A stretch of 64,000 bases of DNA from Malacoraja senta (Eukaryota). This document shows, in pieces, positions 15,568 through 54,985 of this stretch; within the stretch, counting starts at the first letter, position 1, and the number at the start of each line of letters is the position of its first letter. A model generated the notes under the pieces. That model was not told the DNA's origin. It did not search any database and was given only the letters and a program-made list of their open reading frames with translations. The position numbers and the translations under genes were made by a program. Location of the stretch: contig CM075990.1 in NCBI GenBank assembly GCA_038087875.1, positions 8,868,001-8,932,000 of the forward strand, in the 5' to 3' direction.

Positions 15568-15740
15568 GAGATATAAGATTCTGAAATAACAGCAATAAAG
15601 ATACAACATTGAGCTTTCATATTAGGGATGGAGATATAAGATTCTGAAATAACAGCAATAAAGATACAACATTGAGCTTTCATATTAGGGATGGAGATAT
15701 AAGATTCTGAAATAACAGCAATGAAGATACAACATTGAGC
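15568..15740. repeat. Near-perfect 63-bp tandem repeat (~2.7 copies)
   Basis: gagatataagattctgaaataac starts at 15568, 15631 and 15694. Confidence 0.95.
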
Positions 15741-18841: not shown

Positions 18842-19774
18842 TTATATTACAGAACTTAAAATTGTTTCTGCAAACGTTCCAGGTTTAATTACTGGTTTAT
18901 GATAAAATAGTTGGAAAGTTTTCTCCCTTGACCATCCTGCTGTCTTGAGGATTTGGTCCATCGGAACATCCAACTGCATAGCTGCCGATGTAGCTGCAGC
19001 CCTGGTGGAATGAGATTTGAAAATGTTAGTATCCACCCCAGCATTTATTAGAACCTGTTTCAGCCATCTTGAGATGGTCTGGACCGTCACTTTTTTGTGA
19101 GGTTGCTTGTGGCTGATTAATAGTGCCATCTCTTTGCCTCTGATGATTTTCGTGTTCTCCATATATAGCAGTAAATGTCTTACTATACAGAGACGATCAT
19201 CTGTCGGGTAAGCCCTAAATTCTATATTGAGGCCTGCTGACCCCTGTCTGTTCTGCTTGACTAATTCATAAATATGACACGTTATATTTCCAGATGAAGA
19301 AGTCATGTTGTCCAGTCTTAATTTATGTAATGACTGTACCCTTTGTGCTGTGACCAATGCCATCAGCATGACTGTTTTCAGTGTCAGTCTTTGTAGGGAC
19401 AGAGCTGTTGCTGGAGACCAATTCCTTAGCATAGTCAGGACAATACTCACATCCCATATTTGGGAGTACCTGGTTCTTGGGGGATTGATATTAAAAATTC
19501 CCCTCATAAGTTTTGTTACCAGGGGGTGAGTCCCAACAGAATGACGCTCTGTTCCTTGGTATAGATATGTTGACAGGGCACTTCTGGCGCAGTTGATGGC
19601 ACTATAACTGAGCCCCTCATCGTAATGGAGGCCTGCCAGGAATTCCAGAACAGACAGGATGTTCATTGATCTGTAGGTGATGTTGTTTCTGTGACAGTAC
19701 ATCTCCCATTTCCTGATGTATACCAGGTACTGTTTTTTGGTGGACTGTCTGTGGGCCGCTGAAATAATGTTCAC
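18842..19774 (-). CDS. DIRS tyrosine recombinase (open frame, 310 aa)
   Basis: LSYSAINCARSALS; catalytic residues R (AQRVQS), HxxR (SHSTR), W (AGW) and Y (FQLFY). Confidence 0.92.
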   Translation of the reverse strand: MNIISAAHRQSTKKQYLVYIRKWEMYCHRNNITYRSMNILSVLEFLAGLHYDEGLSYSAINCARSALSTYLYQGTERHSVGTHPLVTKLMRGIFNINPPRTRYSQIWDVSIVLTMLRNWSPATALSLQRLTLKTVMLMALVTAQRVQSLHKLRLDNMTSSSGNITCHIYELVKQNRQGSAGLNIEFRAYPTDDRLCIVRHLLLYMENTKIIRGKEMALLISHKQPHKKVTVQTISRWLKQVLINAGVDTNIFKSHSTRAAATSAAMQLDVPMDQILKTAGWSREKTFQLFYHKPVIKPGTFAETILSSVI

Positions 19775-19812
19775 TGTTCGGTCCGTCAGTCCCAGTTGCA
19801 GTAGAGGTACTT

Positions 19813-20382
19813 TTAGACTCTACAAATTAATAAGTTCATATGGTTATGACATGGGTGGCTTTCCCTTGTTACGGGATGAACCAGTAAATCTGGTCTATGC
19901 CAGATGGTGATGCATGGTTCTAATACCATGTTGAGTATCACAGGGAACCATGGTTGAGTAGGCCAATCGGGTACTACCAAAATACCAGACGCAGAGTCTT
20001 GCTGTATTTTCCGTAATATCCGACTGATGAGGCAGAAAGGAGGGAATGCATAAATAAACAATTTCCCCCAATGCAGCGAAAATGCATCTGTCGCCGCTGC
20101 CCCAGGGTCTGGTTCCCATGAAACATAATTTGATAACTGGTGATTAAGCCTGGATGCGAATAGATCGATATCTGGTGTTCCATACCATGCTGTAATATCA
20201 GCAAATACTTTTTTATCCAACATCCATTCGGTGTTTTCATTAAATTTGCGTGACCTGGTGTCTGCCACTGAATTTAGTTTACTTGGTAGGTAAGTGGCTG
20301 ATATCCAAATATTTTTCTGGATACACCATTGCCAAATTGTGTTGGCCAGATTGTCACATGATGTCGATTTGTTTCCACCCAT
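19813..20382 (-). pseudogene. DIRS RNaseH end plus Dam-like DNA adenine methyltransferase domain
   Basis: NSVADTRSR, IDLFASRLN, YAFPPF and VPDWPTQPWFP. Frameshifted from the upstream RT/RNaseH frame. Confidence 0.85.
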
Positions 20383-22330
20383 GTGATTGTTTCCACGGTG
20401 GTATTGTCAATCTAACATGCTGGTGATATAACCCAGAACAATATGACTTTAGGCCATGGAATGCACCCAACATTTCCAGGTAGTTTATGCCCAGTGTTTG
20501 TAACAATGACGCCTCTTGTGCATTCCATCTACCTCCACAGCTGGAGATGGAATTGGTAGCACCCCAACCAAGTGCACTGGCATCAGTTTGCAGCACCATA
20601 GAAGGGTTGCTGATAACGATTGGATTGGAACAATGCCGACTGTTATCTGTCCACCATTTCAGTTCAATTATGGCTTCGATTGGTAGCTTCATTGGTCTGT
20701 CAAAATGACCAGCATTAACTTTGAGTGCTCGTATTTTTGCCCTCTGTAAATTTTGATAATGTAAAGGTCCAAATTGTGTGGCTGGAAAGGCAGCCACTAT
20801 TTTGCCAATTATTCTTGCTACCAATCTGATGGATGGTTTACTGATGTCAATGAGGTTATTGCAAGCCTCTTTTAAGGCTATAGCCTTTTCTTTAGGCAAA
20901 GTCACCGACATGTGAACTGAGTTAATGGTGAACCCCAAATAATCCATTGTGGTGGAAGGGTTTAATTTAGATTTAACTGGATGGATGATAAACCCCAGTT
21001 TTTCAAATAATAGTTTTGTGGCTGTTACCATTTCTTTGGCCAAGTCCAAAGCTTTGCCCACAATAAGTATGTCATCTAGTTATGCCATCACCATGTGTTT
21101 TTGCTTCCGCAGAAACGATAGGGCTGGTTTCAAAATTTTAGTGAACAGCCTGGGGGCTGATGTTAGCCCATTTGGTAGTGCTCTGTACTGCCAGAGCTGT
21201 CCCATCCAGTTGAATTTTAAATAACATCTGTGGTCACCTCGTATAGGCACTGAATAGTAAGCATCTTTTAAATCGATGCTAGCCATGAAGTAACCTTTGG
21301 AAATCAATTGTTTAGCAGTAACAAAGGTTTCCATTTTGAAATGAATATATTGTACAAAAATATTCAAATTTGTCAAATCTATGATGATGCGACAACCAAC
21401 ATCTTTTTTGTTTTTGGTAAAGATATTGGACACAAATTCGAGCGATTCGTGTTTTTTTTTTCAATTACCCCTTTTGCGTAAAGGCTCTGTCTCACGGTGT
21501 TGCGGTCATCGGCGGTGAAGCGCGGCGTCGCCGGTAGAGGGGACCGCACGGCAACGGCGAGAGCGCCGAGCCTATGCCACGGGAGAACCGCACGGATGCT
21601 GCGCGGGGGCCGAGTGATTTAAGTACGGCTGGTCCCACGAGCTTGCGGTAAGTAAAAAAAAAGGGCGGGCCGACTGCGATGACGTCATTTCGGATCTGCG
21701 GGGCTGTGGCGGCGGCAGTGCTGATCGCGGCGCTGTGGCGGCGGCTGTGGCGGCGGCCGTGCTGATCGCGGCGCTGTGGCGGCGGCCGTGCCGCACACGT
21801 GCCTCACTGGCGGAGGCTGTGGCGGTGAAGGTTCTACTCACGGCGCTCGTGCCACACTGGCGGCGGCTGTGGCGGCGACCGTGCCGCACTCGTGCATCAC
21901 TGGCGACGGCTGTGCGGTAGGAAAATATTTTTGAACAGTGTTGGTTTTATTTTAGCACCGTGCGGTGTTGGGAACAACGCCGCACGGCCACGGAATTGTG
22001 CGTTTGACCGAGTGCGCGGTCTATGGCGGCCCAGGAGCGGTGGATTCTTCCTGTTTCACCGCCAATGACCGCAGACTCGTGAGACAGGCCTTTTAAGCCG
22101 CTCCAGTTCAGCATGTGCGTCTGATTTTTCTTTACCTGAAAGTACGAACATTCGGTTCGATACATGCTGAACTGGAGGGCTATGTTTGTGTATAAAATCT
22201 ATGGTATATCCCTGGATACTGCTTAAAATATAAGTGTCTGTAGTTAACATACTCCATGCATCCAGAAAGAAGTGTAATCTCCCACCAACCTCCATACTCC
22301 CTGCAATTCGTAAGGAACCAGACCCACCTA
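20354..22330 (-). pseudogene. DIRS reverse transcriptase/RNaseH, inactivated
   Basis: VGGRLHFF, IDLKDAYYSVPI and LPNGLTSAPRLFTK. The YLDD motif reads *LDD (TAA at ~21080). QTDASALGWG and INYLEM follow. Split by the MITE at 21482-22092. Confidence 0.92.
21482..22092. mobile_element. PIF/Harbinger-type MITE inserted in DIRS pol
   Basis: ~38-bp imperfect TIRs aggctctgtctcacggtgttgcggtcatcggcggtgaa and ttcaccgccaatgaccgcagactcgtgagacaggcctt, flanked by TAA and TTA. Removing it restores ELERLYAKGVIE. Confidence 0.8.
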
Positions 22331-23614
22331 CCTCCATAGTTACCAGTGGCAGGTTTACTTCTTTTTGTGAATCCTTCGTGGAGGTTGAGGCACCGGTGTC
22401 TGGGTTTGTGGTTGGATTGGCGTTGGGGTTTGCGCATCTTCCACGAAGGCCGGTCTGGGCCATGGCCTAAAAAAGACTGATGTGCGGTGTACCTGGCCTT
22501 TGAGCTTTCACCAGTTTGTCTTGTTGTACTGGTGGGTGCATAAGGGTGCTGTTTATGACTATAGTAGGTTTTTGATGATGCCGCTTTGATGAGCCCCAGG
22601 GTTTTTGCCTCCTCATCGAGCTCTTTGACTTGTTTGGATAGGTCACCTCCAAATAGTAAAATTGGTGGTTTTATATTTCCAGGTTTGCACAGACCTGCAA
22701 ATTTCGGGTTTAAAGCAGGTCGGATGGCACTCTTCCTGATGATGTTTAGTATTACAGAGCAGTGCCAGTGCATCCTGTTGATCCTGCGACATCTCCTTTT
22801 CATCTACTGTGCGGGCGAAAGCTGTTATTCCCGTTGTTAGGAGCTTCAGTACTTTTTGGAGTTTGACATCCATGCCTCTAACTCCTGCTCTGACGTGTTT
22901 CCATATGCAATTATTCACAATAGGAACATTCAGGGATGTACAGTTCCCTGGTGGCAAATGTCTTGCCGTGGTGTCCATTACAGCCTGTTCCTGTGGCTGC
23001 TTAAATGACATATAGTCAATACTGGCAGCTAGTTTCGGTTCCAGGTTTCGGCCAGTTTGGTCTGGCTGTATGAATTGGGACACCATGTCCAGTAGATTTT
23101 GGTCTTCCTGCACCCCTCGCACACTTGATGTTTGTTCTGCAAACCCCTCTTCAGAGTCAGCCCAGAATTGACCCCCAGTACTCTCCTCTGACGAGGGAGA
23201 TGCACTGTGCAGACCTACAAGAGGTGCTGCTGTAGGTGTAATATATTGCCCACAGTGACTTGACTCCATCTCCCGGAGCCTGCCACGTTGGAGCATTTGC
23301 TCCATAAGCCGCTCCATCCGGCTCCAGCGTTCATGGTCGCTGGCCGCTCGCGGCTGCTCAAAGTCGGACTCATCCGAGTCAAATACTCTATTAGACTTTT
23401 GTATTGCCTTACCGCCCGGCCGCGGTCTAGATTTGGCCAGTGCGGGGCCGAAGTCGGGCACAGCTGTTCCCATTACGGGTGATTCATGTGCCGCTGGCCG
23501 CTGCTGGCTGCCCGTAACTCCGCGGTCCTCCCTCGCCAGCTTTGTAGCAGCCTTCTTAGTTTTCCTTGTCTTGTCCATTGACTCCACACCTGCAACACAG
23601 TATGGAGAGAACAA
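22180..23614 (-). pseudogene. DIRS ORF1 (gag-like), frameshifted
   Basis: Lies upstream of pol. PGNCTSLNVPIVNNCIW, DVKLQKV, RPALNPKFAGLC and LLFGGDL are typical of DIRS ORF1. Confidence 0.8.
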
Positions 23615-24629
23615 AAAGAACGCAGAGTATCTCTTACCTGCAGTTCCCGGCTCTTAAATTTGCCGCTGAGGGGGAACATCGTTCCACCCGTGTGACTGTT
23701 TCGCAAATCGTGTAGCGATATGACACGCATGCGTCCTGGCGGGGTTCTTCACGTAGTCACTCACGTGACTCCGAAGTAAAATCATAATGGGCATAGATAA
23801 AGTGATTGCACAGAGGGTTACCCCCCCAAGCTATGGGAATCAAGAACTAGAGGGCATAGGTTTAAGGTGAGGGAGAAAGGATTTAAAAGGAACCTGCGGA
23901 TCAACTTTTACACAGATAGGGTGGTACGTATATAGAATGAACTGCTGGAGGAGGTAATTGAGCAGGTACTTTAGCAATATTTAAAAGACATTTGGACAAG
24001 TTATTGGCCAAACGTGGGCAAGTGGGACTATTTCAGATGGGGCATCGGCTGGCATGGACGAGTTGGGGCAGTTGTGCTGTATGACTATGATTCTGACATT
24101 AATGGCGATATTACAGTCTGCTGACACAATAGTGATGGTGGCGTTATACTGTATTGAAACAAAGGCGTATAATATTACTGTGCGCTGACACAGTAACAGT
24201 GTGATGCCACAATAGTAATGGGGATGTTGCCGTCTGGTGTCATACGAGTCATGGATACATGGGGTGTAATGGGGACATCTGCAATGTATAATGATACAGG
24301 TGATGAGATATTACAATATGCTGCAACAATAGCAATGAGGATATTGCAAGTATTTCCACCACAGCAGAAAATATAACTGTCCTGATTACAGTGAAGATAA
24401 TATTACAGTGCTCTGTAACAACAGTGATGGGGATATGACAGTGTGTGGACACAAATGTGCTGCAATCATGGCAGTGTGCAAGGATACATTGCAGAGATTG
24501 CAACGTACTGACACAAGAGTGATGTGGATGTCACACTGTGCTGAATAATGCTGTACTGTGGATAATATAGTATAAATGATGGTTAATTCACATTTTGCTG
24601 GCAATGTGATGCAATGGATTGTTACACGA

Positions 24630-33833: not shown

Positions 33834-34708
33834 CCTGAGGTGAACATAGAGTCATAGAAATATAAAGTTGATCAGAACAGAAATGAGCCCTTTGGCCCAT
33901 CTAATCCATGCCAGCCTTTTTGCCCATATACTGAATATGACTGAAAACTAAATTCTGACCATCTAGAGAAGGCGATGATGGGCCTACACACCAAATCACT
34001 CGAGAAAAGAGAAACCATTTAAGATTCAACTACATCGAAGATAGACACAAAATGCTGGATTAAAAGCAGGTTAGGCAGCATCTCTGGAGAAAAGTAGTAG
34101 GTGATGTTTGGGGTCGAGACCCTTGGGATCAGATTTCTACTCAGGTTCAACTACACTGGCGTGGGAATGGGAAAGCATCTAGCCCCAGACCAGGGAAACA
34201 CCGCAGTTACCTTCCCTAAAGGACTTTAATGAACTATTTAAGATCTAATCATAATCCAAAAGCTTTAAGGTCACCTTTACTATTTTATTTATTTTCACAT
34301 CTTACGTAAAACAGAACCTAAACAGCTGTGATGGGAATTCAACGTAGATTTTCCGATTTTGTGCGTAGACTTCAGGACAATTAGTGTAGTACCATAAACA
34401 CTACATTACTGAACTGCCACGGCGGAACAGGTTCTGTGGATGCAGAAGGGTAGAGGTGAAAACAGTTCCATTGAGGGTATCAGGGGATGTCTCTAATTCA
34501 ATGTTTGTGCTTACATGTTGGCATTCACCCAGCTCTCTAAAGTTATACTGTGGTGTAGATACAGTAGGTTCCTGCCTCTACCTTCACCCATTCTTCATGG
34601 ACACTGAAGGAGATGTGAAGTTTGCACGCTCTTCCTACGACCATGTAGGTTAATTGCCTGCTGTAAATCACTCCTCAGTATCGGTAGTAATCAAAAGGGG
34701 ACATTTTT

Positions 34709-35198
34709 TTTAATTTTTTTTTTTTTTTTAATATTTTAATTTTATTAGAAGTAAGTACAATTGTATACAATCATATTTTCATAATACCTTTTATGTACAG
34801 CTTCTTATTTTTTAAATTTTTTGTAATAAAGAAGAAAAAGAGAAAAGTTAGATAATGAAAAATAGAAAAATGTGAGATATATAGTGTGTGAAAAAGAAAA
34901 ATAGAGAGTGAAAAAAGAAAGTTGAGACATAGAAAATAGAAGAAAGAGAGTAAAAGAAGAAAAGAGAAGAAAAGAAACTAGAAGGAGATCATTTATAATC
35001 TTGACCATCCCCAGTCACGGATTAGCTTTTACACTTGTGTTGCACCATATGTTTCCAAAAAGACGACAAATGGACACCAACTCGTTATGAATTGGTCAAA
35101 TTTATCTATTAGGAGGAATCGCATTTCCTCAAGATGTGCGGTATCCAACATACTTGCAATCCACATTTTGAGCGTTGGTATTGGTGTATTTTTCCAAA
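34709..35198 (-). mobile_element. 5'-truncated L1 3' end (same family as 8753-15326)
   Basis: FWKNTPIPTLKMWIASMLDTAHLEEMRF; polyA; TSD aaaaggggacattttt at 34693-34708 and 35199-35214. Confidence 0.92.
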
Positions 35199-36000
35199 AA
35201 AAGGGGACATTTTTGAGCAACTGAGAGCTATGTTCCAGGGCCGCGAGGAAATATAATGAAGGGGATTAATGGGACAGCTCTGTTTGGGATTTGCATGGAC
35301 ATGATGGGCTGAATGGCCTCCTGTGGTGTATGTTAACCATTACTCATTGTAGAACACCAGATCTTAAATAACCTGTAACTTCATGTTTCCCCAACCTCAA
35401 TGATCCAGGAGACCACCTCGTATATGTCCCATTAAAATGCCTCCATACCATTACAGCTCATTTATTTTATCCAGGCTGAATGCAGCTTAAGAGTCAAGTG
35501 AGCTTAATTGTCATATGTACCAAAACTGAACAATGAGATTCAGTTTAATGGTTATTGTAATATACTGTAAATAGGCCTTAGATTTCCAGATTTACAATCC
35601 TCACTTCACTGCCTCTGTTTAACGGCCTATTCAAAAAGTTTCTCTGCTGCAGTTTACATTATTCAATTCATTAGAACTCTGGTCCCAAGCCATTCCCCAA
35701 GATTTCCCAGTTCCCAGTTTTGGCACAAATGTTCTGTAAACTGAAAGCTATTTTCCTTTGTGCCAAGTGTTCATCTCTTTGATTTATTGCTCTTCTGCTT
35801 AGGCCAAGAAGCATGTAGCTCGGGTAGTAATCTGGAGATTATTACCTCGGTGGTTCTGCTTTCTGATTTGGTCCAGCTGCTCCCAATCCTTCAGAAGAAC
35901 CTTCTTCATTGCTCTGTCCCGGTTGTTTCAGAATGGACCACTTCAAATGGATGTTTGCCTTCAAAGAGCAAATTCCTCTTTATCCTTGTGGCCAGGAATT

Positions 36001-39775: not shown

Positions 39776-40315
39776 TGTTTGGTATATACTGACTGTTTGG
39801 TAGTCACCTGCCATCCAATTAGCATGGCCCCGATCCTCCAGCAAATTTGACCTCACTTTAAATATAAATCATAGCTTATTTGTAACTTATCTCCTGGATA
39901 ATAATGTTAATGTCATGTTCCAAAGGATTTCATCTCTTGTTTAACAAGGCATTTGAGTCCTATTTAGTTGATGCATTTCTCTACTTTAGTGGTTTTGTTC
40001 CAACTCCTAGGTTTCTGAGGAAAGAAATCTGCTTGCATTAACAATGAGTGAGTCTCATGATGATGCTCAGTAGTCATCAGAGAGATGAAACGTATCTGAG
40101 CTCTAAACCAGCTTCAGCTTTAATACGATCAAACACACAATACCCAAGAGTCATACTGGAATTTCATTTGTGAAGCTTTGTGCAAACAGTGGGAGGTAAT
40201 CCTTGCCCTATTGTCACAATTAGTTGAGTCAGCTGTGCGTTTCTTGTCCACTGCGCCAAATGAACTTGCAGCAATGGGAGTGGTGAAGATAGTCACGACC
40301 ACAATCCCTTTGATT

Positions 40316-40528
40316 ACTGTAGGAAGGAACTGCAGATGCTGGTTTAAACCGAAGATAGACACAAAAAGTTGGAGTAACTCAGCGGGACAGGCAGCATCTC
40401 TGGAGAGAAGGAATGGGTGACATTTTGGATCATGACTGTCTGAAGAAGGGTCACGACCCGAAACGTCACCCATTCCTTCTCTCCAGAGATGCTGCCTGTC
40501 CCGCTGAGTTACTCCAGCTTTTTGTGTC
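40316..40528. mobile_element. Penelope-derived fold-back insertion with hammerhead-like motif
   Basis: ~65-bp inverted arms; ctgaagaagggtcacgacccgaaacgtc at 40440-40467; TSD tccctttgatt. Confidence 0.85.
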
Positions 40529-43500
40529 TCCCTTTGATTTCTAAAGCTGGCTGAGGATGAAGCGAGGCGAATCATGGCAAACCCTGCATTTTTCATGAGT
40601 AGAGCATCAGTATCAACAAACTGCATTTAACATCCAAAACATCTCAAGTAATTCAGGAGGGGGTGAGATTGGAATAAACCTGAGCCACACAAAGAGATCT
40701 TAGGACAAGAGCGCAGAAGCTCAGTTAAATAGGATAGGTTTTAAGGAGGATCTGTACGTTTTTTTTTTGCTTTTAAAGATACAGATTGGAAACATGTAAT
40801 TTGGCCCACCAAGTCCGCACCGACCAATGATCACCTATACACTAGTTCTATCCTACACACTGGGGACAATTTACAGAGGCCAATTAACCGAAAACAAGCA
40901 CATCTTTGGAATGTGGGAGGAAACTGGAGCACCTAGAGGAAACTCACGCAGTCACGGGGAGAATGTGCAAACTCCCCACAGTTAGCACCCCAGGTCAGGA
41001 TTGAACCCTTCTTCAGACTGGGTCCAAAGAGGGGTCTCAAACTGTAATGTCACCCATTCCTTCTATCCAGAGATGCTGCTTGTCCCTCTAAGTTACTCCA
41101 GCATGTTGTGTCTATCGTCGGTGTAAACCAGCATCTGCAGTTCCTTCCTACACAGGACAAAGAAAGCAACGGGTTAATGGGTGCAAGGTGAAAGAGGATA
41201 GTAATATGAAATAGGATTATGCTAACATCGTCCCCCTTTCTCCCATTCCTTTGTATACATAAAATGTAATGCCTGCCCATTTACTTCCACCTGTCTGGCT
41301 GCCGAGGGTCCCAATTTCTCCTTCTACAGGAAGCAGCAGTTTGCGGTATCCATTGCTCACATTATGAGTATTATGTACTTTGTGGAGCCAAACTATAGAT
41401 TGGGTTGCACTTTGTAGAATGCTCCTGTACACACTGCAAGCATTTAAAACATCTGTGCCACCCCTGAGTTTCCAGCCACCTGTCACTTTAACCTGAAGAT
41501 AGACACAAAAAGCTGGAGTAGCTCAGCGGAACAGACCTGATCTCTCTGCTCCCAGCCTAAACTATGAGGGGAATATGAGGGGATTGGATGGGGTGAATGT
41601 GCAATTTTTTACCCAGGGTATGAAAATTATGAACCAAAGGACATGTTTAAGATGAGAAGGGGAAGATTAAATAGGAACTTGAGGGGCAACGTTTCACTCT
41701 GAGGGTGGTGGGTTTATGGAACGAGCTGCAAGAGGGGGATTCAAGGAAATGCAGATGATGGTTTACAAAAAGACACAGAGTGCTGGAGTAACTCAATAGG
41801 TTAGGCTGCATCTCTGGAGAACATGGATAGATGATCAGTCTGAAGAAGCATCCTGATCTACAATGTCACCTAGCCATGCTTTGCAGCAATGCTGCCTGAT
41901 CCGCTGAATTACTCCAGCACTTTCCAGAATTGATTCCATATTTGTCGGCAATTTCAGTCAGTTATCACTCCTGCCCTCCATCCAATTACGAAACTCCATT
42001 GTGTTCCTTTCCCCCAACCCACCCCCTGTCCTTTTACTGCATCTTAATAGATCTTTTTGTCAATCATGTTTCTCACCCCACAGATGCTGCCTGACCTGTG
42101 GTTTATTTCTGGTTCTGATTCAGTGTAAATATTTCCTGCAGAGACTGAGCATTAAACAAAGCAGAGCAACAATCCCAGGCCACACAGAGGTCACGAAGAT
42201 TGAATATTCCCTGTCTAATTAATACTCTGCTGATGGATATGAATGATTGAGAATCATTCTGTGCAGCAGTTTTGGAAATGCATGATTGCAAGTGTCATCT
42301 GTGATTAATTTATATGCAAATAGTCTTGCGCTTTGAATTTAGAAAAAAAATCAATTTCACTTAACCTGTGACAGTACTGTATTTGATGAATGTGGGTCCA
42401 ATGGCAGACACAGGAACATTCTTTGGGTAATAATCTTGGACTGGCAACCCAGAAACTTGTGTTCAAATCAAGGCAGCTGTGGAATTTAAATTCAGTTAAT
42501 GATCTAAAATTGACCCCGAAAAAGTTAGTCATTGGTAACAATGACCACAAATTTTCCAGATTGTTGTCAATCCAGTTCATTATGCTCTGCAGATGAGGAA
42601 AACCATCATCTTTCTGACTCCAGACTCACTGCTGAAATTGCCTAGTACACCATTCGCTTGGTATGTTGAAACAAAGAATAAATAAAAGTGGACAGATCAC
42701 CTGGTGTTGAAAAAGGCAGTGCAGACCCACACAAAGTCACTACAAGCATAATTGTGATCTATGCTCTATGCTACAGCCTTCTCATATGGTTTCCCAGGCC
42801 ATCTTGTTCCACAGATCAATCAAGGATATAGCCTGAGATGATTGTCATAGAATAGTATTGTACAGTTAAAATGCCTGAATCCTCAATTATACTCCTCTGT
42901 TCTCCCTGTACCAAAGCAGAAGAGATGACCAAAAGGTGTGAGATGGTGTATGGTTGGGATTTATCAAATTTGAATCCAGATCCCATGAAGTCACTTGGTA
43001 TCAAGCCAAACATGGGCCAGTAAAACCGTGTTCTGATTGCAAATGACTATTCTCCCTCAACTGATGAATCAGTACTCCTCCAAATTGAGCACACTGCCAG
43101 ATCAGGTCTACAGAAAGTAAAGAATTATTCAATATGAGGGATATACCAACCTGGCCTCAATCTTCACTAATGTACAGTACCTATGGTAAATGCATCTGTC
43201 CATGAAAGCATTTTTAGGAAGGACCACACCACATTCCAGCGGGAGAAAAGTACTGTCATCACGCCAAAGATGTGTTGTGTAACATGACAATGATGTAACT
43301 TGGATGGGTGGTTCAAACTGGGTGTTTGACTAAAAGGTTAATTCTGTTCCTCTATCCACAGATGCTGCCTGACCTGCTGAGTGTGTCCACTATTCTCTAC
43401 TTTTGTTTCAGCTAAAACTAGCCCCTCACCAATAACCAGCATTCAAAACCAAGAACATTGCAATTATTTTAATTCAGTAAACGATTCCAAAGACATTAAT

Positions 43501-45194
43501 AGGTCGTTATATTTCCATGGATTTTCATTTTAAGCAAAGCTGTAGTTAGATGAGATACAGATTTATTTTTGTTGGTTTGCATGCATTAACATCCATCAAC
43601 CATTGCTTAAACGCAAGCTTAGGTATTTTTTTAGGATGAAAGAAATTAAATTGTTATTTGAGAGACATATGTATAATTTGAGACCATCCAATAACTATTT
43701 TCATCTTAACCCAAATGATCACATCATCAGATAATTCTTGCAAGGCATTATAAAAAACATTTAATCAAAACACACACTCATAGCAATCACATACATAGTT
43801 AACTAACAAAAAGACATACAATTTTAAATCAACTTAAGTAATTCAGTGGGATTCAAAATGTTGCCGGTTTTGGGGAGAACATTTTTGATGGCAAGGGAAT
43901 TATTACATACTTGGAAAGGAAAGATTTTCCATGTTGTGGGGAAGCGTGGGATGAATTGGAGGGGACTTTTATAGAGCCGGTACCAGCACAATGGGCAGAA
44001 TGACCTTCTCCTGGATTGTGAGACTTGACATCTCCATCCGTGAGCTTTCCAGAGGAGACATGATTCTCCATAAACTGGCCACTGACTTACCATGAGATTC
44101 TACTCCTTTTGGAAGGATTCCCTCCATCCACCCGAAAGCGGAGGCAGAGTGGCACAGCAGTAGAGTTGCTGCCTTACAGCACTAGAGACCCAGGTTCAAT
44201 CCTGACTACGGGTGCTGTCTGTATGGAGTTTGTACATTCTCCCTCCGCTGCATGTGTTTTCTCTAGTTTTCTGTGAGAGGAGAGACAGTTAACTTTTCAG
44301 ATCAAAGAAGTTCATAACGAATAGGTGTAAAATTAGGCAATTCAGCTCATCAAGTCTACTCTGCCATTCAATCATGGCTGATCTATCTCTCCCTCCTAAC
44401 CCCGTTCTCCTGTCTTCTCCACATAATCTCTGACACCTGTATGATGTTTCAGTTATGTTGAAAAGACTTCGACAGAAAGTGTTAATGACAATGATCCATG
44501 CTACATTTTCCTTGACCTTCATCCCCTTAGATGTCTAGTTCTCACCTTACAATTCCTTATCTCTGTGTCTCCCTCTCCCCTGACTCTCACTGAAGAAAGG
44601 TCTCAGCCCGAAACGTCACCCATTCCTTCTATCCAGAGATGCTGCCTGTTCCGCTGAGTAACTCCAGCATTTTGTGTCTTTCTTTCCAACAATGTGGCCT
44701 GAGCTGTGGAATGGTTCCAGCATTTTACCTTATTATTTCAGATATCCAGCATCTGCCATTTCCTTGTGATTTTCGCCAGCTAGTGAACTCAATGTAGTCT
44801 CATTGTCTCATAGTACAAGGAGCCAAGTGATATCTGCAGACGTGAGGCAACAACTGCCCACCTGCCCGATGGAGAACTAGTGCCAGGCAGAAACATCACA
44901 ACCTGGTGAATGACCCACCTGCCAACTACCAGCAAAGTGAATTACAAAACCCAACCTCCTCAATTGTCCACATCTGGCAGCCTAGGCAAGAGGTCTCCAC
45001 ATCCTCCTGTGTATTGTCACAGTTTACTATCAGCATCAAAACAATAGTCTTAACTGTGCTCAGCAAATTTCACCGGTTAGAGATACATCATAAAAGGTAA
45101 TTAGGTGATGGCAATAGAACATAGATTATAGTACAGTACAGGAACAGACCCTTCAGTCTAGAATATCTGTGCTGAAAATGATGCCAAATTAAAC

Positions 45195-45782
45195 TACCCC
45201 TCCCCCCTCGACTCCATTCAAGGACCTAAGCAGTCGTTCCAGGTGCGACAGAGGTTCACCTGCATCTCCTCCAACCTCATCTATTGCATCCGCTGCTCTA
45301 GATGCCAGCTGATCTACATCGGTGAGACCAAGCGGAGGCTTGGCGATCGTTTCGCCGAACACCTCCGGTCGGTCTGCAATAACCAACCTGACCTCCCGGT
45401 GGCTCAGCACTTCAACTCCCCTTCCCATTCCGTATCTGACCTCTCTGTCCTGGGTCTCCTCCATGGCCACAGCGAGCAACACCGGAAATTGGAGGAAATG
45501 CACCTCATATTCCGCTTGGGCAGTCTACATCCTGGGGGCATGAACATTGAATTCTCCCAATTCTGCTAGCCCTTGCTGTCCCCTCCCCTTCATCAGCCCT
45601 CTGGTTGTCTCCTCCCCTCCCCCAGCCCTCGGGCTCCTCCTCCGCCTTTTTTCCTTTTTTCCTTTCTTCTCCCCACCCCCTATCAGTCTGAAGAAGGGTT
45701 TCGACCCGAAACGTTACCTATTTCCTTCGCTCCATAGATGCTGCTGCACCCGCTGAGTTTCTCCAGCATTTTTGTGTCCCTT
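45195..45782 (+). mobile_element. Penelope-like element 3' part: GIY-YIG endonuclease (45243-45569) plus pLTR with hammerhead-like motif
   Basis: FTCISSNLIYCIRCSRCQLIYIGETKRRLGDRFAEHL...PGGMN, followed by ctgaagaagggtttcgacccgaaacgtt at 45688-45715. Confidence 0.92.
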
Positions 45783-46016
45783 CTGCCAAATATCTGGCCA
45801 AATATCCATATCTGTCCTTCCCTGCATATCCCAAAACCTCATAAACGTCACTATCACACCAACATCCACCAACATTAAAGCAGTGTGTTCCAGGCACAAA
45901 AATTAAGTTCAAAGTATTTTATACACTTTTAAGCTTCATTCTGTCAGTGGAGAATCCTTTAACGCTGTTAATTAAATTGCGTATTTGTTATTAAATCACA
46001 GCAATCTCACATGCCT

Positions 46017-46244
46017 GTTTAAGAAGGAACTGCAGATGCTGGAAAATCGAAGGTAGACAAAAATGCTGGAGAAACTCAGCAGGTGAGGCAGCATCTATGG
46101 AGCGAAGGAAATAGGCAACGTTTCGGGCCGAAACCGCTTCGTCCAAAAGTCAGCCCGAAGAAGGGTTTTGGCCCGAAACGTTGCCTATTTCCTTAACTCC
46201 ATAGATGCTGCCTCACCCACTGAGTTTCTCCAGCATTTTTTTCT
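46017..46244. mobile_element. Penelope-derived fold-back insertion
   Basis: Inverted arms; 14-bp TSD aatctcacatgcct (46003-46016 and 46245-46258). Confidence 0.85.
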
Positions 46245-47770
46245 AATCTCACATGCCTTTCTGCTTCATTTGGTTTGTAAAGTTTCCCTTTGTGGATTAC
46301 GGAACAGTTAATTAAGGTACAGATCTCTTCTGATTTAATCCAATATCAGAAGGCACTTTTTGATGATCCCACTGGTGTATCCAAAAAAAGGTCCCCACAT
46401 TTATATTTTCTTAATCTTCTATCGACCACTATCAATTGATAACAGTTCAACCCTTGCCTCGTGAGAAATGTCAAATATCTCCATCCTCTTACTCAATTCC
46501 CAGCACACTCTTGTCGTAACTTGCATGGATTCATTTAATGTTAAACACACTGAGATTCATGTTATACTGAGACACTTCCCATTACACTTGTGTGAAAATT
46601 CTATTTCTCAGTCTAGTGAGCTCTGTAAAACAACTGTCAACATCAATGTCATGTCCATTCCTTCAACACGAACATAGTTTCACAGTCTTTGCCTCTCTCT
46701 TCTCCTCTGTCCATTTCTCCATCTGCTTTTTTTATGCTTCTTTCCCTCTTTATGCCATTCCGTCTCATTCTCCCCGTCCCCATCCTTCGCTCCTAATTTC
46801 CTCTCTTTCAATTTCTCCCTTCCAATTTATCTCTTGTTTTGGTTTAGTTTGGAGATACAGGCCCTTCGGCCCACTGAGTCTGTGCCGACCAACGATCCCC
46901 ACAGACGAGCATTACCCGACACATTATTGACAATTTTACAATTTTTGTCCAAAGCCAATTAATCCTGTGCGTCTTCGGAGTGTGGGTGGAAACCAGAGTA
47001 TCGGCGTAGTCACAGGGAGAACGTACAAACTCCGTATAGACAGCACCTGTAGTCAGGATGGAACCCGACTACAATGTGAGGTCATAAGTGATAGGAGTAG
47101 AATTAGGCCATTCGGCCCATTAAGGTCTACTCTGCCATTCAATCATGGCTGAACTATCTTCCCCTCTTAACCCCATTCTCCTGCCTTCTCCCCAACACAT
47201 CTGACACCTGTACTAATCAAGAATCTATCTATCTCTGCCTCATAAATATCCACTGACTTGCCTCCACAGCCTTCAGTAGCAAAGAATTCCACAGATTGAA
47301 TGAATCCTTTTTTCCTCATCTCCTTCCTAAAAGTACGTCCTTTAATTCTAAGGCTATGACCTCTAGTCCTAGACTCTCCCAGCCACTCTACCGCTGCACC
47401 ATCTCGTCGCCTCTCTCTCTACTTCCTTCTCTGTCCTGATCACATTCACCTGCCTCTAAATCAGATCGCCGTCTCCCCTTTCTGACTATCGTCTCCTTCC
47501 ATTCTCTCTCTGAGTCTTTTTTGGAGTCATTATCCATGTTTATCCTTGCTCTCCAAAATGCTATTGAATATCAGTGAAAGAAAAATAGAACAATTTAAGC
47601 CATTTTAACTGAATAAAGATGTCACCTACTCAAATTGGATAGTGCACAGGTTTGTAGATGGGGAAAATCACGGGTTATAGTGAGTAAGTGGTGAAGCAAT
47701 AGCATTGACACTGACCTTGATAGAACCCATTCATAACAATCAAACAAACCTGGTTACAAAGCCTTCTCCA

Positions 47771-48057
47771 TTGCTCAACCCACTGTTAATTCAAGTGGAA
47801 CACTAGCATCCAGTAGATAGACACAAAATGCTGGAGTAACTCAGCGGGACAGGCAGCATCTCTGGATAGAAGGAAGAAGGGTCTCGACCCAAAACGTGCT
47901 GAAGAAGGGTCTCGACCCATTCCTTCTCTCCAGAGATGCTGCCTGTCCCGCTGGGTTACTCCAGCATTTTGTGTCTATCTTCAGTTTAAACCAGCATCTG
48001 CAGTTCCTTCCTATACACTAGCGTCCAGTAGCTGTGATATCATATCATAATTTATAT
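47771..48057 (+). repeat. 287-bp direct repeat, copy 1 (contains a Penelope fold-back)
   Basis: Identical by eye to 50767-51053. Confidence 0.95.
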
Positions 48058-50766
48058 ATATATATATTTTTTTAAATTTTTATTTATTAGAAGTACATTA
48101 CATTACAACTACATACATTAATACTCGTCATTTATATCATCTTACAATTAATGTACTCCCTTTATTTATTTTTTTACACTAGAGAAAGAAAAGATTGAAA
48201 GAGAGAAGAAAGTGAAGGAAAAAGTGCAAGTGTAGAAAAGTGTAGAAAATGTAACAACAAAAAAGGACGAAGACCCTATAAGAGCGAAATTAAAAACAAA
48301 AAGAAAAAGAGTTAAGAAATAGGCCCTAAGAAAAGAAAAGAGAAAGAGAAAAAAAGAGAAACAAATGTTTTTTTTTTTTGAGCATCACGTAAATAGGACA
48401 TACCAACTCTTCAACTATCATCCCCCCTTACCCGACCTCAATTTTTTTTTTTTTTTAAAGTACTTTTGCACCCCATGTTTGTAATAATTCTATAAATGCA
48501 GACCACGTCAGGTGGAAGTGATCTGGTTTACCTGCTAGGAGGAGTCTTATCTCTTCAAGGTGTAATGTTTCAAACATATTTGAAATCCACATATTTATAG
48601 TTGGTATTGGAGCCTTCTTCCAAAATTTTAGAATTAGCTTTTTTCCAGTTATTAACCCATAATCCATTAATTTCTTTTGAAACACATTTAATTCTGGATC
48701 ATCTTCCGTTATTCCGAAGATAATCCATTCTGCTTTGGGTATCAGTCTTGTTTTAAATAACTTTGTAAAGATTTCAAAAATTTCATTCCAAAATTTTTGA
48801 ATTTTTGTACAGAAGACAAATGCGTGCGCTATAGTTGCTTCTTGGGATTGACATTTATCACAAATAGATGATACGTTTGGGAAAATTTTATGAATTTTAG
48901 TTTTCGAATAATATAATCTATGTAAAATTTTAAATTGTATTAAAGTGTGTCTTACATTAATCGAGCATTTATGCACTTTTAATAAGTATTCATTCCAACT
49001 TTCCTTTGAAATTTTAATAGCTAACTCTTGTTCCCAGTCTCTTCTGATACCCTCCGTAGATGGTATTTGTGCATTTAAGATAATATTGTACAAATATGAT
49101 ATTAAGTTTGCTGATTCCGCTTTTATCTGCATTGCCTCGTCCAGTACATCTGCTGGGTTATTATGATGATCTTTTATATATTTTTTCAAATAGTCGCATA
49201 TTTGAAAGTATTTAAAATATTGATTATTTCCGAGTTTATATTTTATTTGTAATTGTTGAAATGAAAGTAATTTTCCAGTTTCATACAAGTCACCAAGCGT
49301 TTTAATTCCTAGTCTATCCCATTGTGTATAAGCTTTATCTATAATAGAAGGACTAAACGAAGGGTTATTGACTATAGGTAATAAAAGTGATAAGTTTCTT
49401 AATTTTAAATTTTGTTTTATTTGTTTCCAAATACGGATTGTACTATGAATAATTGGGTTCTTATTATAGTTTATGTTATTCAATTTCATTGGAGAGAGGA
49501 GGATCGCTCCAATGTTTCTAGAGGAGCAATCCTCTTTCTCCATTACAATCCAGTCTACTTGCTGGGCGGAGTTATCCATCAGTTGAATCATGTTTTTAAT
49601 ATTTACTGACCAATAATAATACATAAAATTAGGTAGTGCTAGACCCCCCAATACTTTAGATTTATTCAGATGGGTTTTTTGTATTCTATGTGATTTATAG
49701 TCCCATATAAAATTAGTGATATCTGAGTCGAGTTTTTTAAAAAACTTCTTAGGTAAGTATATAGGAATTGATTGAAATAGGTATAAAATTTGTGGTAAAA
49801 ATATCATTTTTATTGCGTTTATTCGGCCTATTAAAGACATCGGAAGCGTTTTCCAGAATTTAATTAATGTATTCAGTTTATTAAGTAGGGGGTCAAAATT
49901 TGCCCTGAACATACCTTGATATGCTCTGGTAATTTCGATTCCCAAATATTTAAATTTTTCTGTAGCTATTTTAAAAGGGAATTTTAAAAGATGTGTTGAA
50001 TCTTTCGGTTTTATTGACATAATTTCACTTTTATTCCAATTTATTCTATATCCAGAAAAAGATCCGAAGTCTTCAATTAAATTTAATATATTTGGTATAG
50101 TGATTTGAGGTTTTGTAATATACAATAATATATCATCCGCGTATAAAGATATTTTATTATATGAGTCTTTAGTATTATATCCATGAATATCAGGGTGTAT
50201 TCTAATTTTTTCTGCTAGCGGTTCAATAATGAGAGCAAACAGCTGTGGTGATAATGAGCATCCTTGTCTATTTCCCCTTGATAGTTGAAATTTCGAGGAT
50301 AATATGTTATTAGTAAGTATTCTAGCTGTAGGTTTGTTATATAGTAACTTAATCCATAAAATAAAATTCTCTCCCAGTTGAAATTTTTGTAATACTTTAT
50401 CCATATAATTCCATTCTACTTGATCAAATGCTTTTTCAGCATCCAGCGAAATAATTGATAATTCTTGATCTTCAGATTTGTGTGAGTGCATTATGTTGAG
50501 TAGACGTCTCATATTATTAGAAGAGTATCTCTTAGGGATAAACCCTGTCTGATCTGGGTTTATTAATTTACTAATGTATTTACTTAATCTTCTGGCTAAT
50601 GTTTTCGCTAATATTTTTTGATCTGTGTTTAACAATGCTATAGCTCTATATGAGCCAGGTTCTTCTAAATCCTTATTTTTCTTAGGTATTAATGTAATCG
50701 TTGATTCCGCTAATGTATCAGGTAGTATTCGTTTTTTAAAAGCGTATTGGTACATTTTTTGTAATC
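48058..50766 (-). mobile_element. Young 5'-truncated L1
   Basis: Uninterrupted ORF2 fragment, 3'UTR and A-rich tail. Confidence 0.95.
48455..50755 (-). CDS. L1 ORF2p RT plus C-terminal CCHC, 766 aa open but lacking the endonuclease domain
   Basis: SLDAEKAFD, RQGCSLSP, LYADD, KYLG and CDKC...HAFVFC. Confidence 0.9.
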   Translation of the reverse strand: MYQYAFKKRILPDTLAESTITLIPKKNKDLEEPGSYRAIALLNTDQKILAKTLARRLSKYISKLINPDQTGFIPKRYSSNNMRRLLNIMHSHKSEDQELSIISLDAEKAFDQVEWNYMDKVLQKFQLGENFILWIKLLYNKPTARILTNNILSSKFQLSRGNRQGCSLSPQLFALIIEPLAEKIRIHPDIHGYNTKDSYNKISLYADDILLYITKPQITIPNILNLIEDFGSFSGYRINWNKSEIMSIKPKDSTHLLKFPFKIATEKFKYLGIEITRAYQGMFRANFDPLLNKLNTLIKFWKTLPMSLIGRINAIKMIFLPQILYLFQSIPIYLPKKFFKKLDSDITNFIWDYKSHRIQKTHLNKSKVLGGLALPNFMYYYWSVNIKNMIQLMDNSAQQVDWIVMEKEDCSSRNIGAILLSPMKLNNINYNKNPIIHSTIRIWKQIKQNLKLRNLSLLLPIVNNPSFSPSIIDKAYTQWDRLGIKTLGDLYETGKLLSFQQLQIKYKLGNNQYFKYFQICDYLKKYIKDHHNNPADVLDEAMQIKAESANLISYLYNIILNAQIPSTEGIRRDWEQELAIKISKESWNEYLLKVHKCSINVRHTLIQFKILHRLYYSKTKIHKIFPNVSSICDKCQSQEATIAHAFVFCTKIQKFWNEIFEIFTKLFKTRLIPKAEWIIFGITEDDPELNVFQKKLMDYGLITGKKLILKFWKKAPIPTINMWISNMFETLHLEEIRLLLAGKPDHFHLTWSAFIELLQTWGAKVL

Positions 50767-51053
50767 TTGCTCAACCCACTGTTAATTCAAGTGGAACACT
50801 AGCATCCAGTAGATAGACACAAAATGCTGGAGTAACTCAGCGGGACAGGCAGCATCTCTGGATAGAAGGAAGAAGGGTCTCGACCCAAAACGTGCTGAAG
50901 AAGGGTCTCGACCCATTCCTTCTCTCCAGAGATGCTGCCTGTCCCGCTGGGTTACTCCAGCATTTTGTGTCTATCTTCAGTTTAAACCAGCATCTGCAGT
51001 TCCTTCCTATACACTAGCGTCCAGTAGCTGTGATATCATATCATAATTTATAT
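50767..51053 (+). repeat. 287-bp direct repeat, copy 2
   Basis: Identical by eye to 47771-48057. Confidence 0.95.
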
Positions 51054-51116
51054 TAATCCTGTTCTGTCACATTGAAGGATTTTCAACCGGAAGCAGAAAG
51101 TATAACATTACATTCA

Positions 51117-51498
51117 TAGAAACATAGAAACATAGAAAATAGGTGCAGGAGGAGGTCATTCGGCCCTTCGAGCCAGCACCGCCATTCATTGTGATCATGG
51201 CTGATCGTCCCCAATCAATAACCCGTGCCTGCATTCTCCCCATATCCCTTGATTCCACTAGCCCCTAGAGCTCTATCTAACTCTCTCTTAAATCCATCCA
51301 GAGATTTGGCCTCCACTGCCCTCCGTGCCAGGGAATTCCACAAATTCACAACTCTCTGGGTGAAAACGTTTATTCTCACCTCTGTCTTAAATGGCTTCCC
51401 CTTTATTCTAAGACCGTGGCCCCTGGTTCTGGACTCGCCCAACTTTGGGAACATTTTTCCTGCATCTAGCTTGTCCAGTCCTTCTATAATTTTATATG
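51117..51498 (-). mobile_element. CR1 3' fragment
   Basis: YKIIEGLDKLDAGKMF...FTQRVVNLWNSL; (catagaaa)n tail; attca at both junctions. Confidence 0.9.
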
Positions 51499-51727
51499 AT
51501 TCAATTTGAAATATTTTACAAAATATAAAGTAAAGACTGGAAAATAGCCAATAAATGGGCCAGAAGGAAAACATATCTTAAAAGAAATTTTAAAATACAT
51601 CTCTTCTAGGTTGAAATATTCCAAACATTATGCAGAAAAGTAGATTCGCAGGGAGAGGGGATTCCTTCGCAATTATTTTGGCTTAGAATTCCAAACAAAA
51701 CTCATTTAAACAACGGAGGAAATACAA

Positions 51728-52032
51728 TTTAGTTTAATTAAGTTTAGCGATACAGTGTGGAAACAGGCCCTTCGGCCCCCCGAGTACGCGCCGACCAATG
51801 ATCCCCGCATCTTAACATTATCCTCCACACACTAGGGACCATTTTCACATTTACCAAGCCAATTAACCTACAGACCTGTATGTCTTTGGAGTGTGGGAGG
51901 AAACCGAAGATATCGGAGAAAACCCACGTGGAGAACGTATAAACTCCATACAGACAGCACCCATAGTCGGCATCGAACCTGGGTCTGTGGTGCTGCATGT
52001 ACTGTAAGGCAGCGACTCTATCGCTGCACCAC
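51728..52032 (-). mobile_element. V-SINE (HE1-like)
   Basis: Reverse complement of the SINE consensus. Confidence 0.85.
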
Positions 52033-52344
52033 CTTTTACGAGTGTTTTACAAGGATAAGGTCATATTTACCTTAAATTTCTGGCCGCAGACCTGCTGGAG
52101 AGGATGGGATAAGTGCAGTCCATGGAGAGCCACTGAAACATTCACAACGGCATCAGTGTGGGTGGGAAACCTACAAATTGTTATCATTGTCACTGACATT
52201 AGTGAGTTTGCCATGGGTAGAGCGATACAACTGGTGCTGATACTGCAGCATCTGTGCAGATCAAAGGGAATCAAGAATAGGGGGAGCATAGAAATAATCA
52301 TTGTGTCAGGATCATTGATGGTCTTATTGGATTACATGCAAGAT

Positions 52345-52748
52345 TCTTCTTCATAGGCCCCCCTCGGTCATAGCTGACCATGGGTGTCTCCAGGGTGTTA
52401 TTCCCTATATGGAGGACGCCTATGCGTGACTTTGTTTAACGTGGGGAGAATGGTCCTTGACAGATCTGGGTCAGGATCCAGTGGCATGGAGTCCAAGACG
52501 ACCGGAGACCCGTTTCTGCTGCAGCCTTCATCCGCCTTCCCAGCCGTTCTGACGCTCCACTAAGGTCAGCCATCATCCTCCGCCTGTTACACCGATGAGG
52601 TCTTAGTTGGATTGCTCTTTGTCAAAGACCTCCCCCTCGACCCTACCGCCATGGGTGGCCCTACCAGGTGCATAGCTCCAGACGGCATTGCTCTCAGGAT
52701 CTCAGGTCCACACAAGCTTCTCCACCACGACAAGGTGACAATCCACAG
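52345..52748 (-). mobile_element. Short non-autonomous RTE-type element
   Basis: Minus-strand 5' end gtggattgtcaccttgtcgtggtggag resembles RTE/Expander 5'UTRs; (gaa)n tail; no ORF. Confidence 0.55.
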
Positions 52749-53693
52749 AGATGGGTGCAAGATTGAAGGTCTCCAACTTCTCCTGTTTCTTATAACTATT
52801 CTAAATGAGGCTACGCACCTTGCCAATGTGGACACTGCTGCAATACATTGAGACACAGTCATTAAAGTCAGCCATGATCATTATTCAATGGTGGGTCATG
52901 CTTGAGAGGCCAAGTGGTTTACTCCTGTCCCTACTTTCTTGTGTTCTTATGTGCAAGCCAGTTAAAGCAGCATATTCTGCTCCTCTGGGTCACTGTTATC
53001 AATGGTGGGTTGGTTTACGTTTGGAATTCAGTGCCAGGTTTTGTGGCAGAACTGGTTCTAGGGAAAGGAGAAAGGGAGAATTATAAGCATCTGATAGGAA
53101 AGAATTTGCAATGCTGAGGGGATAAGACAGAAAAGTGGGAGGAGGAGTTGCTCTTACACTGAGTGGGTATGGGCGATGGGCCAAATGGCCTCCTTCCTTG
53201 TTGTAACCATTATGTGGTCCTTGATTCTGTCATCTTTGTACAATCGACTTTTATGTAATTGTTTGTGGCAGAACTCAAACTAATTTACTTGATCCAAATG
53301 AACGCTGACAACTATTACATCTTGGAAAATAAGTTGGACTGCATTGAAAAATAAAACTCTATGATTTATATCCTGTCCTAGACTAATCCCCCATAACATC
53401 ATCTGTCCTTGCTAGTTCTCATTGCCTTATTGTTTATCTCAATACATATTTTTTAAGTTCTTACTTCTGTGTGGTTAACCTTTTCCAAAGTACTTGCTAC
53501 CAACTACACTGGTCTTCTCATGCTGTGCACATGAGTGCACATATCCCTTATGAATCCATCATGCTCCATTATAGACATTCTCCCTCAGTGGCTCTGGGGC
53601 ACCAGGGTCCAGTCCAGAGACTGCAGTATACATAACCATTCACAGGTTATCATGGTGAACCCGTGGGTGACATGGTAGCACAGCCATTGTAGC

Positions 53694-53990: not shown

Positions 53991-54530
53991 ACTGCCTCAC
54001 AACAGCAGAGGTGGAAGTTTAATCCTCACCTTGGGTGAAGCCTGTTGGATGTTTACACATTCTTCCTGTGGCCGCGTAGTTTCTTCTGTGTGTTGTAGTC
54101 ACCACCCACATCGCAAAGACATGCAGTTTAGTAGGTTAATTGGCCACTGCACTTTGCCCCCAGTGTATACTGAAGATGAGTGGTAGAATATGGGGGGGGG
54201 GGCGAGGGAGGGGGGACTTGATGAGAATTCTGGGAGAATAAAAATGGGATTAATATAAGATTAATGTAAATGTCAACATCAATGGTTGGCACAGGCTTGG
54301 TGGGCAAAGGCCCTGTCTCTCTGCGGTATTTCTCTTTGATTCTATGATTCTTTGAGTGAAACTGAATTTGGGTTTGTTCAAGTCCTGGCAATGGTATTTT
54401 GCATTCAATAGCTGAAATTGACTATTCAGAAACCCACTGATCACCACTTTCTCGGGTGCTGTCGGTGTGGAGTTTGTATGTTCTCCCCGTGACCTTGTGG
54501 GTTTCCTCCAGGTGCTCCTGTTTCCTACTA

Positions 54531-54985
54531 ACTATGGCCACACTACATATACTAGCCATGGCCACACTAGATGCATCTGCTATGGCTACTCTAGATGTAC
54601 CTCAATGGAACCCATTTATAACAATCAAACAGACTTGGTTGCAAAGTCTTCTCCACTGCTCAACCCACTGTTGGTTCAAAAGGAACACTGGCGTCCAGTA
54701 GCTGTGATATCATATCATAATTTATATTAATCCTGTTCAGTCACATTGATGGATTTTCACACACAACAGGAAGCGGAAAGCATAACTTTATATTCAATTT
54801 AAAAGACTTTACAAAATATAAAATAAAGAATGAAAATTGACCACACTAGATGTACCAGCTATGCTCACACAAGATGTACCAGCCATGGCCACACTAGATG
54901 TACTAACTATAGCAACACTACATATACTAACCATTGCCACACTAGATGTACCAGTCATGGCCACTCTACATATACCAGCTATGAT
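54531..54985. repeat. 24-bp minisatellite (atggccacactagatgtaccagct) split by a ~230-bp duplicated segment
   Basis: About 3 units at 54531-54603 and about 6 units at 54837-54983. Confidence 0.9.

Follow-up and report, generated by a model that had tools for sequence, protein, structure and literature searches.

Insertion of long interspersed nuclear elements (LINEs) is usually marked by a short target-site duplication (TSD), about 10-20 bp for an ordinary L1, and TSDs that reach a few hundred bases are known, though uncommon. TSDs of 217, 242, 275 and 277 bp have been reported for de novo human L1 insertions, and the passages on long TSDs in PMC5223499 (citing Gilbert 2002/2005) put those longer than 100 bp at up to 10% of the events in HeLa cells and at the majority in cells deficient in nucleotide excision repair (NER). 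The model given in these passages is a distal, unrelated second nick, and they invoke no hairpin for the 217-277-bp TSDs of the engineered insertions. The zebrafish LINE ZfL2-2 produced a 1228-bp TSD in one of 25 wild-type insertions in DT40 cells, as stated in the insertion data of PMC2666801. The relevant parts of PMC5932605, PMC11260458, PMC12350158, PMC2912911, 10.1101/2024.08.27.596794 and 10.1101/2025.10.25.684559 contain ordinary TSD lengths or passing mentions only. In this study we describe a 64,000-nt stretch of DNA from Malacoraja senta (GenBank assembly GCA_038087875.1, contig CM075990.1, positions 8,868,001 to 8,932,000 of the forward strand; hereafter the window, whose own coordinates are used throughout), in which a 5'-truncated L1 lies between two identical 287-bp copies of what appears to be its target site.

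Like the de novo human insertions presented in PMC5223499, the locus has a 5'-truncated L1 whose tail meets the target at an endonuclease-like site and whose target is directly duplicated over hundreds of base pairs. However, those insertions were engineered and took place in HeLa or NER-deficient cells, whereas the present L1 is endogenous, presumably germline, belongs to a non-mammalian vertebrate and sits in a target that contains a fold-back. ZfL2-2 is comparable as a fish LINE that occasionally makes a very long TSD in repair-proficient cells, but it is a member of the L2 clade and was studied as an engineered element in heterologous cells (insertion data of PMC2666801). The L1-mediated tandem duplications outlined for tumours and L1-induced clones (PMC7058536; bioRxiv 10.1101/2024.12.14.628481) likewise consist of an L1 bridging direct copies of its target; they are somatic and extend from 1 kb to 22.6 Mb, whereas the block described here is shorter than 0.3 kb. 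The first-pass annotation of the window had called long L1 TSDs rare, which is right, yet the passages cited above show that the class was already reported for L1 and for a fish LINE (PMC5223499, PMC2666801).

The tail-side (left) copy of the block occupies 47771-48057 and the 5'-side (right) copy 50767-51053. They match at 287 of 287 bases and cannot be extended further on either side, and the runners-up in the exact-repeat comparison of the window were a 92-bp tandem unit, microsatellite runs and a 48-bp match to a third, diverged site at 54599-54843. There is no N among the 64,000 bases. The 287-bp repeat is confirmed for the assembled sequence, and the first-pass annotation, which had noticed identical blocks adjoining the L1 tail and the 5' truncation point, was accurate in this respect. 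The block begins with about 30 bp of target and closes with about 26 bp of it; in between, a fold-back of about 200 bp is enclosed by two copies of a short repeat.

The 2,709 bp between the two copies belong to an L1 on the minus strand. Its A-rich tail and 3' untranslated region (UTR) lie at 48068-48454 and end in a motif shared with the L1s at 8.75 and 34.7 kb, and the remainder (48455-50766) is an ORF2 fragment. As annotated at first, the frame is uninterrupted over 766 codons from its first Met; it measures 771 residues from stop to stop, with neither a stop nor a frameshift. It contains RVT_1 (E 6.7e-40), the YADD motif and a C-terminal CCHC motif, as well as a zf-RVT match (E 7.7e-05) that falls under its curated cut-off. 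The nearest homologues are about 1266 aa long, carry PF03372 and PF00078 and are 50-54% identical, one of them being named LINE-1 reverse transcriptase-like. Since the copy starts at about residue 500 of these homologues, it is 5'-truncated; a relative at 8.7-15.3 kb, 74-80% identical, has an endonuclease and an upstream open reading frame, and the studied copy is truncated before both. Judged by homologues and anatomy, the element would be an L1-clade LINE. The summed contig depth of its 3' UTR, a crude measure, reached 1.5e5-9e5 in the two best-matching public runs (organism G) versus 8-46 in organisms A and B; thus the subfamily looks lineage-specific. Taken together with the open 771-codon frame, this depth contrast marks the copy as apparently young. 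The copy has at least some private changes: at 48823, 49802 and 50594 (among the 40 of 221 difference rows listed) 86-100% of the family depth in the runs X19 and X20 differs from it.

The 287-bp repeat adjoins both ends of the L1, which supports a TSD made by the insertion itself. At the tail end there is an endonuclease-like TATT/AA site on the plus strand (51051-51056), one base beyond the exact repeat, where the first nick may have been made. An A-rich tail at such a YYYY/RR-like site is the arrangement of an insertion through target-primed reverse transcription (TPRT); the tail-end sites of the other two L1s in the window are AGTT/GA and TTTT/GA. The T-run of the tail is set apart from the block by a 10-base (AT)5 spacer (48058-48067), which has no counterpart in the tails of the other two L1s. 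It is probably the result of slippage at priming, and if it is read as an expansion within the TSD, it permits a 288-bp duplication. At the other end, the L1 frame enters the block as Ala-Arg-Leu. A Pro stands before the position of this junction in 103 of the 111 alignable homologues (120 were listed of 1030, and nine without gap-free cover were dropped), and in the L1 at 11.5 kb the matching codon is CCA. This implies that one to three bases at the start of the block (50767-50769) are those that the L1 itself would supply, i.e., a microhomology, which the sections on 5' junctions in PMC4245944 and PMC2912911 present as typical of 5'-truncated L1s. With the shared bases and the (AT)5 reading taken into account, the true length of the duplication is about 284-288 bp. 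The TSDs of the other two L1s are exact and measure 17 bp (8736/15327) and 16 bp (34693/35199), as the first-pass annotation had them; the present one exceeds the ordinary range and falls in the long-TSD class. No short TSD was hidden at the L1 ends, the longest word common to the junction contexts being 5 nt. The far, 5'-side end of the duplication shows no endonuclease consensus; therefore, it most likely derives from a host, repair or replication nick. The endonuclease-like tail site and the 5' microhomology are signatures of TPRT that are unexpected from an arbitrary assembly join.

The third site (54599-54843, plus strand), which the first-pass annotation had overlooked, is an older, diverged copy of the ancestral target and serves as a natural empty site. 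It is identical to 47714-47815 at 87 of 102 positions, to 51012-51116 at 97 of 105 and to 51486-51550 at 52 of 62, and in it the left flank, both block ends and the right flank are contiguous, each being present once. It lacks the fold-back, the L1 and the repeat at 51117-51485, and the sequence that forms the fold-back's own TSD occurs in it only once. Because this site is single and uninterrupted, the 287-bp repeat is most likely a duplication of the target, and its ends lie in target DNA and not at the ends of an element. A single copy is found at the older paralogous site and, for the right end, also in a contig from organism A. The third site interrupts a 24-bp minisatellite (54527-54983) and resembles a templated insertion from 3-7 kb upstream that predates the fold-back, the L1 and the 51117-51485 repeat. 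It also shows that the target site was copied locally once before the fold-back existed and without any L1.

The public data comprised 24 runs, all in the form of Logan contigs, two of which contained half or more of the query words; these were X19 and X20 (organism G), with 0.77 and 0.73 of the words of 50400-53600. The contigs of four runs (X19, X20 and, from other organisms, X2 and X4) were aligned to 48010-51700 at 88% likeness, and this alignment was dominated by repeats, with more than 260,000 pieces per run. A 154-nt contig of organism A (50987-51148) continues without a break from the end of the fold-back, past the end of the block, through the right flank and into the repeat that follows, which implies that the fold-back predates the split from that organism. 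An X19 contig covering 51035-51137 starts at the position where, among the 31-mers of the window, the right copy and the third site branch apart, which suggests that the third site is present in the reads; it holds 19 letters to the left of the block end, too few to count as bridging. The depth at 51056 in X20 was 121.4, about 4 x 30.4, a value expected with or without the L1 because the third site exists. The exact pattern of the 5' junction had no match in metagenome contigs, a collection that is uninformative for a vertebrate.

The fold-back occupies 47815-48014 in the left copy and lies at +2996 in the right one. Its inverted arms, derived from the 3' end of a Penelope element, are 61 nt long and 97% identical, its stem spans 47815-47980 (166 bp), and the whole insert measures about 200 bp. 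The block has a folding energy of -87.1 kcal/mol (z -16.7), and none of 200 shuffles was equally stable. The insert is bordered by its own TSD of up to 17 bp with one mismatch (47800-47816, partner 48015-48031). The fold-back family forms 24 merged segments in the window, seven of them with internal inverted arms, both block copies being counted; strong fold-backs number six, about one per 10 kb. The arm is 81% identical over 140 nt to one located behind a GIY-YIG-like C-terminus at 58.6-58.9 kb, and the C-terminus at 58896 lies upstream of an arm that is 81-92% like the block. A further GIY-YIG match at 45162-45548 (E 1.6e-4, 22.3 bits against a cut-off of 22.6) has a family arm at 45683-45783, and 45162-45783 as a whole reads as a fragment from the 3' end of a Penelope element, in which an open GIY-YIG C-terminus precedes a hammerhead-like arm. 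The position of the family arm behind the GIY-YIG C-terminus and the putative hammerhead-like core in many arms indicate that the fold-back is the end of a Penelope-like element. The first-pass annotation, which saw a Penelope hairpin of about 200 bp filling most of the 287 bp, is upheld by these similarities. The hammerhead core pattern had 12 matches in the window. Nine of these belong to family arms. The block, the centre of which is rearranged and contains broken hammerhead-like cores, has none; the 17 Rfam matches were all under the gathering score and included no hammerhead.

Both block copies share this rearranged centre, which is unlike that of the family, and the same mismatch in the fold-back's own TSD; therefore, they are two copies of one locus and not two insertions. 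In the accounts of PMC3846280 and PMC4209133, Penelope inserts with inverted pseudo-long terminal repeats (pLTRs) have the same fold-back ends, a short TSD of their own and, in the family, a putative minimal hammerhead-like core. In contrast to those, the present fold-back is an older passenger without coding sequence and with a rearranged centre, and it is the cargo and not the boundary of the duplication. We infer that it is older than the L1 insertion; most likely it was a passenger that at most eased unwinding. The fold-back's TSD has an A in each of its copies, at 47805 and 48020 (right-copy position 50801), whereas the third site and one contig each of organisms A and B have a G; either these contigs come from a paralogue or the two short repeats were homogenised. 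Two other strong Penelope-derived fold-backs, at 46003-46260 and 40311-40560, have energies of about -90 kcal/mol; a 14-bp TSD of its own apparently flanks the one at 46 kb.

These observations can be arranged in the following course of events. A single-copy target site would first have received the Penelope-derived fold-back with its own TSD. Much later, the L1 endonuclease would have nicked the plus strand at TATT/AA (51054/51055), and reverse transcription would have started from the tail with (AT)n slippage. Synthesis would have halted 2.7 kb into the element, the end of the complementary DNA (cDNA) would have paired by the 1-3-nt microhomology with a 3' end of the other strand about 285 bp away, and strand displacement followed by fill-in would have copied the block on both sides. 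We infer the positions of the nicks, the source of the second end and the existence of the structure in the animal.

Our preferred reading, which we regard as about as likely as not, is a genuine L1 insertion with a TSD of some 284-288 bp made during insertion from a second end about 285 bp away. It is on the whole probable that the duplication is genuine and was made at insertion, if a second route to the same product is counted in. On this second route there would be no distant nick: the 3' end of the cDNA, or the reciprocal end, would find a microhomology some 285 bp upstream, either in the same chromatid or in its sister, anneal there and copy through the block by synthesis-dependent or break-induced replication, while a displaced strand refolded as a hairpin could hold the loop open. 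Taken alone we find this route unlikely, though somewhat less so than the other alternatives. It yields an identical sequence product and agrees with the microhomology and with the lack of an endonuclease consensus at the far end; each single strand of the block regains about 87 of the 385 kcal/mol of duplex energy by folding. The pertinent passages of bioRxiv 10.1101/2024.12.14.628481 call small L1-associated tandem duplications large TSDs and ascribe them to break-induced replication, and the 5' extra nucleotides of ZfL2-2 often come from flanking DNA according to the junction data of PMC4245944. However, the duplications so ascribed in the same bioRxiv passages are 1-10 kb long, the two block copies bear neither copying errors nor template-switch scars, and a finished insertion cannot separate the two routes. 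The proposal of the first-pass annotation, a second cleavage about 287 bp from the first, is supported as regards a long TSD arising at insertion (the single-copy older site, TATT/AA and the microhomology), while the distant nick itself is one of two routes to the same product. Three further explanations place the cause elsewhere. An assembly artefact, in which two haplotypes, one of them carrying a longer L1, were fused and the block was written twice, or in which polishing homogenised the copies, seems rather unlikely. It would account for the perfect identity, most of the block consists of a fold-back repeat of very high copy number, a difficulty for assemblers, and the junctions are known from the assembly alone; but such a merger would leave either a short TSD of the normal kind or a cut at an arbitrary point, and instead there is no short TSD, no N and no frameshift over the 2.3 kb up to the junction, the join coincides with microhomology, and the start of the X19 contig at 51035, as predicted, means that the local assembly on the right side agrees with the reads. 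Still less probable is a pair of events, either an ordinary short-TSD insertion whose 5' end later broke and was patched with sequence templated by the upstream block, or a tandem duplication that shortly preceded the insertion. The third site demonstrates that this target was once copied locally without an L1, but the breakpoints of the two events would have to match both L1 ends within 0-3 bases in a time short enough to leave the copies identical, and a single block end is seen both at the third site and in the organism A contig. That Penelope drove the process, two pLTR-like copies having captured or mobilised the L1 or two fold-backs having inserted independently, is very improbable indeed. 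Some 200 of the 287 bp are Penelope-derived and capture between direct pLTRs is described in the Adineta section of PMC3846280, but the repeat extends about 45 bp to the left and 41 bp to the right of the fold-back into the ancestral target, it includes both copies of the fold-back's own TSD and the private centre, and no TSD surrounds the whole unit. We rejected capture and independent insertions alike, as both are contradicted by the third site.

Several points weigh against a genuine long TSD made at insertion. The probability of perfect block identity at a divergence of 0.1, 0.2, 0.5 or 1% per copy is 0.56, 0.32, 0.06 or 0.003, so the identity is fine if the insertion is very young and suspicious if it is older; at 1% it would hardly be expected. 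The microhomology appears to follow from homologues and from a relative about 75-80% identical, which is not the source element, and the conserved Pro would by itself force one of its three bases. The exact repeat fails by one base to reach the best endonuclease site, and the (AT)5 has to be invoked as an additional step. The precedents cited here are insertions in cell culture or tumours and not in the germline, and the coincidence with a fold-back (0.7-2.7%, see below) is left to chance. The L1 junctions were present in neither the 32 pieces, the 15 joints nor the 24 loose ends listed, of about 617,000 repeat-dominated pieces, and this absence argues neither for nor against them.

The first-pass annotation had further proposed that cruciform extrusion displaced the second nick. 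Structure-specific nicks are expected at the junction or the loop of a cruciform. The ends of the duplication, however, lie 44 and 77 bp outside the stem, neither at its base nor in the loop, and full extrusion would leave 121 bp between them, versus 16-17 bp in the other L1s; the cost of extrusion in relaxed DNA, i.e., without supercoiling, is about +73 kcal/mol. Hence, the cruciform was rejected as the direct cause of the position of the second nick, and this part of the annotation is not supported as worded. A different role for the hairpin can be envisaged, namely a systematic lengthening of TSDs wherever a Penelope fold-back lies beside an L1 nick: the strand that is displaced would fold, stabilise unwinding past the element, and the L1 would duplicate it whole. 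This form fits the geometry of the duplication better than a cruciform-placed nick, yet we consider it improbable. In favour of a hairpin effect, a 287-bp interval placed at random in the window includes a fold-back at 0.7% of positions and shares 100 bp or more with one at 2.7%, figures that refer to a single case and were computed post hoc. The nearest fold-back is 77 bp away for the studied L1 and 31.6 and 5.6 kb away for the two L1s with ordinary TSDs. An assembly artefact would likewise favour a repeat rich in fold-backs. According to the biochemical passages of PMC12809410, the L1 endonuclease responds in vitro to DNA structure and to mismatched hairpins. In the titles, abstract openings and keyword passages of the mainly open-access literature searched, we found nothing linking a target hairpin or cruciform to long L1 TSDs.

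The window holds several other elements, and its repeats resemble those of a cartilaginous fish. The L1 at 8736-15343 is of full-length size (about 6.6 kb) and has a broken ORF2, with a Penelope arm inserted into it at 11044-11173, and the one at 34693-35214 is a short 5'-truncated copy of about 0.5 kb. On the minus strand at about 18840-23650, frames with RVT_1, a Dam-like methyltransferase (E 3.9e-4) and Phage_integrase (E 2.5e-10) mark a tyrosine-recombinase retrotransposon, which we take to be DIRS-like. A nearly perfect 63-bp tandem repeat of 2.8 copies lies at 15564-15741.

How the second strand is cut or joined in L1 integration is still an open question, as the discussion in PMC12809410 puts it. 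One case settles nothing about mechanism, and its value lies in the question of whether fold-backs are enriched in long TSDs; if they are and the fold-back acts as envisaged above, the palindrome of one retroelement would steer the integration of another and be amplified by it. Insertions of this kind escape TSD callers limited to about 30 bp, and recombination between the copies can excise them cleanly, as noted in the passages on long TSDs in PMC5223499. A natural, apparently germline TSD of 287 bp in a non-mammalian vertebrate would extend a class that the papers cited here document from cell culture and tumours.

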